Source of the DNA: Dehalococcoidia bacterium
Lineage (GTDB): Bacteria; Chloroflexota; Dehalococcoidia; Lucifugimonadales; UBA826
DNA length: 64,000 nucleotides
Reading direction: 5' to 3'
Assembly: GCA_045564655.1 (NCBI GenBank)
Contig: JBJLGX010000020.1
Coordinates: forward strand, 3,864 to 67,863
A program made the position numbers. How positions within the stretch are numbered: position 1 is the stretch's first letter; every line of letters begins with the position of its first letter. Shown piece after piece: positions 3,001-6,000 of this stretch.

Positions 3001-6000
3001 TATAAAAATGTCTGAAGTTGATATTAATCCTGATTTATGGGAAGAATTGAAACATGAAAATCTTATAGATAGAGATTGCCCGACGAAATCTATTTAATCT
3101 TTTCTTTAAAAGCTAAATTAGCACTATGAGTTATTTCCATGTTTGAACACCTCCGTGATGAGAACATGTGCCACTTCTATTTGTGCTATAGCTAACTGTT
3201 CCATCCTTACATATTGCTGTCGGAGACTCATTTAAAGTAGATGCACATTTCCATAAACCACTTTGTGAAAAAATAGCCTGTTTTTGAAGGGTTAGATATT
3301 TTGATTCACGACCCCCCCCCCCCCCCCCCCACTAGGTATTTCGGTATAAACTCTAGCTAATCCATATTTTACTAATTCGGCATTGTAATCAATTTCATGT
3401 TCTGTAGCAGAATGGATATATGCTAAAAGTCTTTCGTATTTGTCTCGTTGAGAGCCAATATCTAAATCATCATATAGATGGATTTTTGTACCGGGAGGAA
3501 GATTAGATGACAAAAATTCAGTTGCTTTATCTCCCCACATATCTAAACAGGTTATGTCAGTTATGTTGCCATATTCTCCTAGTTTATTTGGCATAGATGT
3601 TTCTGGAGTATCAATTCCAAGTAGCCTGACTTTATCAGTAGTTCCATCGGGAAATTCTATTACGATGGTGTCTCCATCGATAATTCTATTAACTATTACT
3701 TCTGCTTCATAAAATAAATTGACAGGTTCAGTGATATTTGGCATTACAGTCGAGGCAACGTTAACGTTGGTTATCGAAGGAGATAAACTAGAGTTATTAG
3801 AAATTGATTTAGTAGGTAAAGGTGTTGCTGGGTCGTATTGATCCGTAGTGCTAATTTTTGATTGGACGGTTGACGCAGGATTTTGTAAGGGATCATCAGT
3901 ATTAGTAACAAAAACACGAGTCAAAATAAATACAATTACTATCAACAATAATATGAAAAATGCTTTTTGCTTGTATATCATTACAGAATTTCCAAATTGT
4001 TAAGTTATCGATATTATAGCTCTAATGATATTATGAGATTTATTTGAGATGTGTAGGAGAAATCATGATTAGTGTTTCAAGAGCTATTGCGAAAGCTTTA
4101 AAAGAAGAAGGAATAAAATGGGTATCAACGTTTCCTGTCTGTCGAGTAAATAATTCATTAGGGGAAGAAAATGTTCCTATGATTATGATGAGAGACGACA
4201 GATATGCAGTTGCTTTGGCAGATGGATTTTCTCGTGTCACAGCTGGAAAAGAAATTGGAGTTTGTACTGTACAGGGAGATGTTAATGCTGCAGGAATTCA
4301 AGTTGCATATGCTGGATTAGCTCAAGCTTTTGAGGACGGATCACCTATCCTATGTATTACAGATGGGATTTCAAGTGGAGATTCCGAAAACACACAATTT
4401 GATGTTACAACTAGTTTGAAATCTGTTACTAAGTGGTATGGGTATATAGATAAGCCCGAAAGAACACATGAGTTTATGCGCCGAGCTTTTTCTATGCTTA
4501 GAAATGGCGCACCCGGTCCGGTAGTTATCGCTGTTCCTGATGCTAATGCTGAATTTGATGAGACATTAGATCCATACTTTACTTCTAAGCCATATAAATA
4601 TGCTCCAGATCCGGCTGATGTAGAAGAAGCCATCAAACTTGTTATGGATGCAGAGAATCCGATTATGTACATTGGTGAAGGGGTAGTTTATGGAGATGCC
4701 GGTGAAAGTTTATTAGAATTCGCAGAACTTTCTGATATTCCAGTGATAACAACTTTAAAAGCCAAAGGCATATTCCCAGAATCACATCCGTTATCTGTCG
4801 GTGTTAGGGGTTCACACACAGCTAATTTCTTAAGAGATAGTGATTTGGTTTTATCAATAGGATCTAGCCTTTCTCCAGGTAGATTTTCCCACGGCATACC
4901 TAATGCAACCGATAAGAAGATCATATATTGTGGGTTAAATGAATTACATATAAATAAGATGTTCCCGACTACACACGCAGTTTTAGGTGATGCTTTATTT
5001 ACTCTAAAAGCTCTTATTCAAGAGTTAAAAGATAAAACATCAGGTAAAGGCAGGTCTAACGCAAAAATATTTAAAATTATTGAAGATCAGCGTGCGGAAG
5101 ATGATGCTATATATGAACCTGCTATGAAATCTTCTGATAAACCAATTAATCCTTATAGGGTTTATTCAGAGATGATGAAAATTTTAGATCCTAAAAATTC
5201 ATTTGTAACTCACGAATCTGGAAATACGAGAGATCAACTTAGTACTGTTTACCAAACAGAGGTTTCCCGAGGATTCTTAGGTTGGGGTAATGTGTCTACA
5301 CTTGGGTTTAGTTTGCCGGTAGCTATGGCTGCAAAGATTGCTTCCCCAGAAAGGCCTTCTATTTTAGTCACAGGAGAAGCAGGAGTAGGTTATATGTTAG
5401 GGAATTTAGAAGTTCCTGTTAGGGAAAATATTCCAATTACAGTTATACATATTAGTAATGGAGGGTTTTCAGGTTACGGTCCAGGATTTTGGGGTGAAGG
5501 TCATGATCCTTATACTCATCAAGTACTTACATATGAAACAATAGATATGTCGAAGATGATCAAAGAACTTGGATTTTACACTGAGAGAATAACAGAACCA
5601 GATGAAGTTGCTGCTGCCATCCAACGTGCACTTGAGGCTAATGAGACTGGACAATCCTCTTATATAGAGTTTATTTGTAGTCAATATCCTGTTTATGGAG
5701 GATGGATTAAGTAATTTCATCATGTTAAAAAAGAAAATCTCATTATTGATAGTTAGTTTCATTTTGTCACTCATAGTTTTACTCATTATGAGTGAATGTG
5801 TGTTGCGTAATGTAGGGTTAGGCGATCCGGTTATTTATTATTCAGATCCTGCGTTTGGGTATTCCTTAGAGCCTAATCAAAAGGTAGAACGTCTTCGAGG
5901 TTCTACAGTGACTATCAATGAAAGTGGATTAAGGTCATTGCAGACTTGGCAAGATGTGGATAAGCAGAAAATCTTATTTTTAGGAGACAGTGTTACATAT

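Follow-up and report, generated by a model that had tools for sequence, protein, structure and literature searches.

The nuclease gene and the run that interrupts it

The DNA under study (the window) is a 64-kb stretch of a metagenome-assembled genome (MAG). Its sequence is, of course, a consensus drawn from a metagenome, and does not come from an isolate or from a single cell. On the minus strand lies a gene for a nuclease of the SNase (thermonuclease) family, and inside that gene is a run of 19 identical bases (Table 1). The first-pass annotation described this run as C, which is right for the plus strand; the gene, being on the minus strand, reads it as G. The GC content of the window is 35.0%, and a run of such length had been called striking in DNA so poor in G and C. 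It is. Because the next-longest run of C or G anywhere in the 64 kb is six bases, a run of 19 stands far beyond what chance would deliver.

The deposited reading frame ends in ARVYTEIPSGGGGGGVVNQNI, with its stop six codons past the run. The protein that it encodes carries the NCBI title [quoted passage not shown] and sits on a contig of 194,331 bp. The orphaned 3' part of the gene encodes the last SNase helix, a GLW motif, and a Cys motif characteristic of DUF3761. In all of the relatives described below, this part is contiguous and in frame with the rest.

The gene was rebuilt with runs of different lengths. Lengths of 2, 5, 8 and so forth, through 17, 20, and 23, gave a single open reading frame of 277-284 amino acids; lengths of 18, 19, and 21 gave truncated products. 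This is what the first-pass annotation had argued, namely that the two parts are in register only if the run length is congruent to 2 modulo 3, and that 19 bases bring a premature stop six codons downstream. It was also right that the run splits the gene, but it overstated the loss. The 3' share that is missing amounts to about one fifth of the protein (59 of 277 amino acids), not to one third.

With the run set to two, the repaired protein can be compared with known families from end to end. Its N-terminal hydrophobic segment (residues 7-25) has a mean Kyte-Doolittle hydropathy of 3.04, the maximum over 19 residues, and would form a signal-anchor or transmembrane helix. A linker rich in Ser, Thr, Pro, and Asn comes after it. 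The SNase domain (PF00565) is then matched at residues 117-239, spanning the site of the run, in a match that scores 69 bits where the curated cut-off is 21 and covers profile positions 1-106 of 107. The DUF3761 motif (PF12587) is matched at residues 242-276, with E = 3.3e-10 in the repaired protein and E = 1.9e-11 in the orphaned fragment alone. These matches exceed the curated cut-off of 29 bits, at 40.7 and 44.7, and cover only profile positions 47-81 of 82.

Alignment to the staphylococcal nuclease chains in the PDB finds the IDGDT and RLLxxDTPET motifs conserved, and places residues of the repaired protein opposite D21, D40, T41, E43, R35, and R87 of the S. aureus enzyme. The run falls at the P117-N118-N119 loop of that enzyme, just before the C-terminal helix and W140, where IPSGRES of the repaired protein aligns with KPNNTHE. 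Here, the likeness to the thermonuclease family (an end-to-end domain match, with IDGDT, R..DTPET, and the R87 equivalent in place) is accompanied by a difference: the protein in the window also has a predicted membrane anchor at its N terminus and, following it, a long linker of low complexity.

The anatomy proposed at first reading, a membrane-anchored SNase that carries DUF3761, is upheld by the Pfam matches, the hydrophobicity, and the nuclease alignment alike. The gene of the population is predicted from its sequence to encode an intact, conserved, membrane-anchored extracellular nuclease of the SNase family with a C-terminal DUF3761 Cys motif. By analogy with its family, the protein may serve to break down or scavenge DNA outside the cell.

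The DUF3761 Cys motif and the SNase domain also occur together in four distant homologues (P0002, P0003, P0004, and P0038). The motif is C-terminal of SNase here and in P0004, but N-terminal of it in P0002 and P0003. Judged by these few proteins, the partnership is a recurrent one in which the order of the parts has been shuffled.

Table 1. Features of the nuclease gene and changes private to this contig, with positions in the window
Feature	Position	Gene or strand	Basis or remark
Homopolymer, 19 C on the plus strand (19 G on the gene strand)	3312-3330	gene on minus strand	sequence read directly
Open reading frame as deposited, 229 aa	3292..3981	minus	identical to NCBI MFL2756377.1
Orphaned 3' part, 59 codons and TAA; reads RESKYLTLQKQAIFSQSGLWKCASTLNESPTAICKDGTVSYSTNRSGTCSHHGGVQTWK and then stop	3131..3310	minus	same gene, different frame
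N-terminal hydrophobic segment, residues 7-25, AFFILLLIVIVFILTRVFV	3907..3963	minus	Kyte-Doolittle
SNase (thermonuclease) domain, interrupted by the run	3248..3633	minus	Pfam PF00565, E = 5.8e-19
DUF3761 C-terminal Cys motif, CKDGTVSYSTNRSGTCSHHGGV	3137..3241	minus	Pfam PF12587
Private patch of 13 substitutions (209 bp)	9270-9478	CMD-family gene 9157-9543, minus	11 synonymous, 2 non-synonymous
Private +1 insertion	11172-11175	gene about 10893-11255, plus	absent from 8 of 8 covering contigs
Perfect 17-bp tandem duplication, AGAATTATATGAAAAAT twice	13710-13743	ORF 13735..14712	absent from 6 of 6 covering contigs

The same gene in other assemblies

The first-pass annotation had asked that orthologues be compared for the presence and the length of the run. 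An orthologue is carried by 15 distinct public contigs (16 aligned) from ENA, Logan, JGI, and Tara assemblies, with a nucleotide identity to the window of 95.6-99.9%. As other assemblies, possibly of other samples, they report on the population, and not on the reads of this sample. All 15 share a neighborhood in which a PfkB kinase, an aldo-keto reductase, the nuclease, a TPP enzyme, and a carbamoyltransferase are found together.

Every one of these 15 contigs reads ATACCTAGT-GG-TCGTGAATC (CCTAGT-GG-TCGTGAA) at the site, and every one encodes an intact protein of 277 amino acids. The native codons are AGT GGT CGT, and the 19 G of the window are thus the GG of the glycine codon GGT plus 17 G that no relative has. 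These 17 bases are absent from all 16 aligned contigs of the same or a near-identical population, including contigs that are 99.8-99.9% identical to the window. The flanks match the relatives at 100% over 90 nt on each side, with no bases replaced. Intermediate or variable lengths were sought in the 15 contigs and none was found; each has exactly two G. Nor does any related locus that was fetched contain a run of G or C longer than six, and the window contains none besides the run itself.

The allele of the window also exists without the run. As an exact protein of 277 amino acids it occurs elsewhere (P0121), encoded on a Logan contig (L006, from SRR30531576) with 4 SNPs relative to the window over 3,012 nt. 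Over 2 kb (2264-4267), that contig and the window are identical save for the 17 G. A second close relative (L007, ERZ27294452) matches the window at all but 3 of 1,679 nt. The same Logan contig disposes of the idea that two strains or contigs were joined at the run: it matches the window on both sides, with no switch of haplotype. The first-pass annotation had said as much in holding that the run is no chimeric junction.

Searches by other routes gave a consistent picture. The 90%-identity protein cluster holds 22 sequences, and among the 15 members listed, 14 have 277 amino acids and read ...IPSGRESKY...; the sole exception among those 15 is the product of the window itself. When the JGI metagenome collection was scanned for the two flanks with any insert of 0-30 nt between them, one contig matched, and its insert was 0. 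The exact product of 229 amino acids found no match in the contig index. Distant homologues have no run of glycine at the site, reading SARELDY (P0002), SSRESDY (P0003), and STRINNY (P0004). GTDB representative genomes scanned with a protein query (P0001) gave no relative, and a scan of them with MutS2 gave only a marine Chloroflexota MAG, SP344, at 72% amino-acid identity and with no orthologous locus. A literature search for mentions of SRR30531576, ERZ27294452, MFL2756377, and ERR9649206 returned none.

Judged from these alignments, the run is a private insertion of 17 bases into a haplotype that circulates intact. The first-pass annotation had named reads with "just GG" at this site as the sign of an artefact, and just GG is what near-identical sequences (up to 99.9%) from other datasets have.

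Other private changes on the same contig

The relatives cover 56.4 kb of the window with contigs that are 95.6-99.98% identical to it, mostly above 99.3%. Across the 52.1 kb covered by at least three contigs, there are three private indel events: the 17 G, a +1 insertion at 11172-11175, and a 17-bp duplication at 13710-13743. Two of the three break genes.

At the +1 insertion, the window reads GGTGGGTAAG, and the relatives read either GGTGGGAAG (3 contigs) or GGTGGTAAG (5 contigs). Written as an alignment, the relatives have GGTGGG-AAG or GGTGG-TAAG, a synonymous G/T SNP, and the window holds both alleles side by side. The result is a frameshift in a gene for a 120-amino acid protein of family PF10107 (Endonuc_Holl), which now ends in ...KSAGG. 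Because only about 0.9% of positions are polymorphic, a real insertion that happened to fall at this spot and to take this allele-fusing form would be a coincidence. From its sequence, the change resembles a mistake of the consensus at a position where the population varies. In collapsed long-read assemblies, indel errors do arise at allelic variants (PMC8445201).

The duplication covers the RBS/ATG region of an open reading frame for a 2-hydroxyacid dehydrogenase-like protein, and leaves the frame unbroken. Both multi-base events are 17 nt in length, and they may share a technical cause. In principle, of course, either the +1 insertion or the duplication could be real.

The private substitutions are about 10 scattered singletons and a patch of 13 SNPs in the CMD-family gene. 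The patch has the look of a short segment that was imported by recombination from a more divergent lineage. To judge by their pattern, the private substitutions look biologically normal and selected, and the oddity of the contig appears confined to its indels.

Three readings of the run

The first-pass annotation offered three explanations: a slipped-strand contingency switch, an expansion that inactivated the gene, and an artefact of sequencing or assembly. The switch is a special case of the run being real. Here, a hypermutable poly-G would leave the nuclease on at 17 or 20 G, and off at 18, 19, or 21. The anatomy is classical: a G run of 19 nt inside the open reading frame of a surface or secreted protein, where about 7 nt or more is long enough to slip, with the frame set by the length of the tract modulo 3. 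A G run this long, if real, would slip at high frequency, and the lengths that turn the gene on would merely add a Gly-rich insert in a surface loop. Phase-variable poly-G/C contingency loci in exported proteins are known from Campylobacter, Neisseria, and Helicobacter. However, the tracts in these genera are typically about 8-13 nt rather than 19; they are conserved among strains with variable lengths, and they stand at many loci per genome. In this case, a single tract is present in the window, in one assembly, and the relatives have GG.

The switch is unsupported because a tract with varying lengths would be expected in relatives, and similar tracts elsewhere, and neither expectation holds. 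The length is the same in all 15 distinct contigs, each of which has an intact gene, and long G or C runs are missing from the rest of the 64 kb and from related loci fetched. The distant homologues have no glycine run at the site. An evolved switch should persist in at least some close relatives, and in these slippage would have no substrate because they carry only a GG dinucleotide. The switch, as a reading of this locus, is highly improbable.

Suppose instead that the organism itself acquired 17 G at GG in a real, very recent, and private loss-of-function event, for example through aberrant or non-templated synthesis in break repair. Both the deposited consensus and the NCBI protein show the run, after all, and the insertion is seamless, as a mutation would be. 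Yet we know of no mechanism by which a dinucleotide would gain 17 identical bases in a single step in vivo, and of no precedent for it. Growth from GG by stepwise slippage was considered and rejected: it would take several very rare frameshifts, yet the 2 kb around the run are unchanged relative to the intact allele, and none of the 15 other contigs of the population has an intermediate length. The scattered singletons and the recombination patch do mark the window as a distinct strain, one in which such an event might have occurred, but a second frameshift private to this contig looks like an error of the consensus. Altogether, a real mutation seems unlikely.

On that supposition, the nuclease would be truncated before its last helix, with DUF3761 lost, and the gene would be a young pseudogene; this too is doubtful. 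For an inactivating expansion, the first-pass annotation was right about the disrupted frame, with its frameshift and stop. Further lesions or signs of relaxed selection in the gene were not found, the rest of it encoding exactly the intact P0121. That absence of decay fits a very recent event. A product of 229 amino acids, which has neither the DUF3761 module nor the final helix of SNase, would be expected from the literature on fragments of staphylococcal nuclease to be largely unfolded.

A bolder variant joins the two preceding ideas. A real, one-step, non-templated insertion of 17 nt into a surface-loop codon would have created a hypermutable on/off tract, partly rescuable by slippage. This is a very long shot. 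Were it true, the birth of a contingency locus would have been caught in a wild marine Dehalococcoidia, implying a homopolymer-adding repair activity not known before.

The reading that we prefer is that the 17 extra G are a run-length or consensus artefact of this one MAG assembly, and not part of the gene of the organism (probability roughly 0.7). Such an artefact, one of the three options from the outset and the best supported of them, is favored because every other copy lacks the tract, because the same haplotype exists without it, and because the contig has other private indels, one of them with the signature of a consensus error. The native GG would have been inflated to 19 G during sequencing, consensus building, or polishing, with the flanks left untouched. 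The inflated run would then shift the frame, and annotation would stop at 229 amino acids.

Two routes to such inflation can be envisioned. In two-colour Illumina chemistry, no signal is called as G. If two-colour reads were used for assembly or polishing, "dark" cycles without signal would be called G, and a cluster that paused through them could yield a true insertion. Alternatively, a long read that stalled might over-call the homopolymer, and the over-call might survive into the consensus at low coverage; it could also survive in an assembler that is run-length or homopolymer-compressed, where GG and 19 G look alike.

Simpler versions were rejected. Dark-cycle substitution within a read would not do as the cause because no bases are replaced, and the two flanks meet at the same point as they do in the relatives. 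Two reads with poly-G tails joined from opposite strands would, by reasoning, give a junction between a G run and a C run, and none is present.

An artefact is not without difficulties of its own. Ordinary dark cycles substitute bases rather than insert them, which counts against it, as no base is replaced here. For the insertion to pass a de Bruijn assembler, several reads would have to bear it, and the consensus of a MAG normally follows the majority of its reads; both count against it as well. The conversion of GG to 19 G between untouched flanks looks like a repeat-count error, but a seamless insertion is also what would be expected of a genuine mutation.

The run resembles homopolymer and run-length errors, allele-collapse errors, and two-colour poly-G calls in being a private indel of a single type of base. 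The usual homopolymer error, however, is of 1-2 bases, and here 17 have been added at a dinucleotide, which is much larger. Classic poly-G artefacts lie at the ends of reads or contigs, or replace bases; this one would be a seamless internal insertion. A search of the literature on internal poly-G insertions in assemblies found nothing specific. Likeness to assembly errors as a class lies in the absence of the run from all independent assemblies of the population and in the allele-fusing +1 on the same contig, an indel at an allelic variant of the sort that PMC8445201 describes for collapsed assemblies.

What the run means for the use of the assembly

Most probably, the run does not reflect real biology, and its biological weight is small: what the population has is an ordinary, intact, conserved gene for an SNase-DUF3761 nuclease. 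Its weight for data quality is greater. The deposited MAG carries a homopolymer insertion of 17 bases that truncates an NCBI protein (MFL2756377.1), and elsewhere on the contig at least one further frameshift appears to be a consensus error. Anyone who scans MAGs for pseudogenes or phase-variable loci would be misled by sites of this kind, which can be filtered out cheaply by comparison with near-identical public contigs. Should the run be real, it would be a hypermutable tract that arose, unusually, in one step.

Other variation in the window

No tRNAs were found in the 64 kb. Single-base A/T indels at 2010 and 2109, in the intergenic region between the PfkB kinase and the aldo-keto reductase, distinguish the window from 13 of 14 and 11 of 14 relatives, respectively. 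They are common to the window, L006, and a few others, and are ordinary intergenic strain polymorphisms. At the very start of the window (1-980) are two adjacent SnoaL_4-like genes. Segments 1-326 and 519-969 both match a single region of contigs L004 and L008, with 92% and 81% identity. The number of SnoaL_4-like copies varies between strains, with one in L008 and two in L010.
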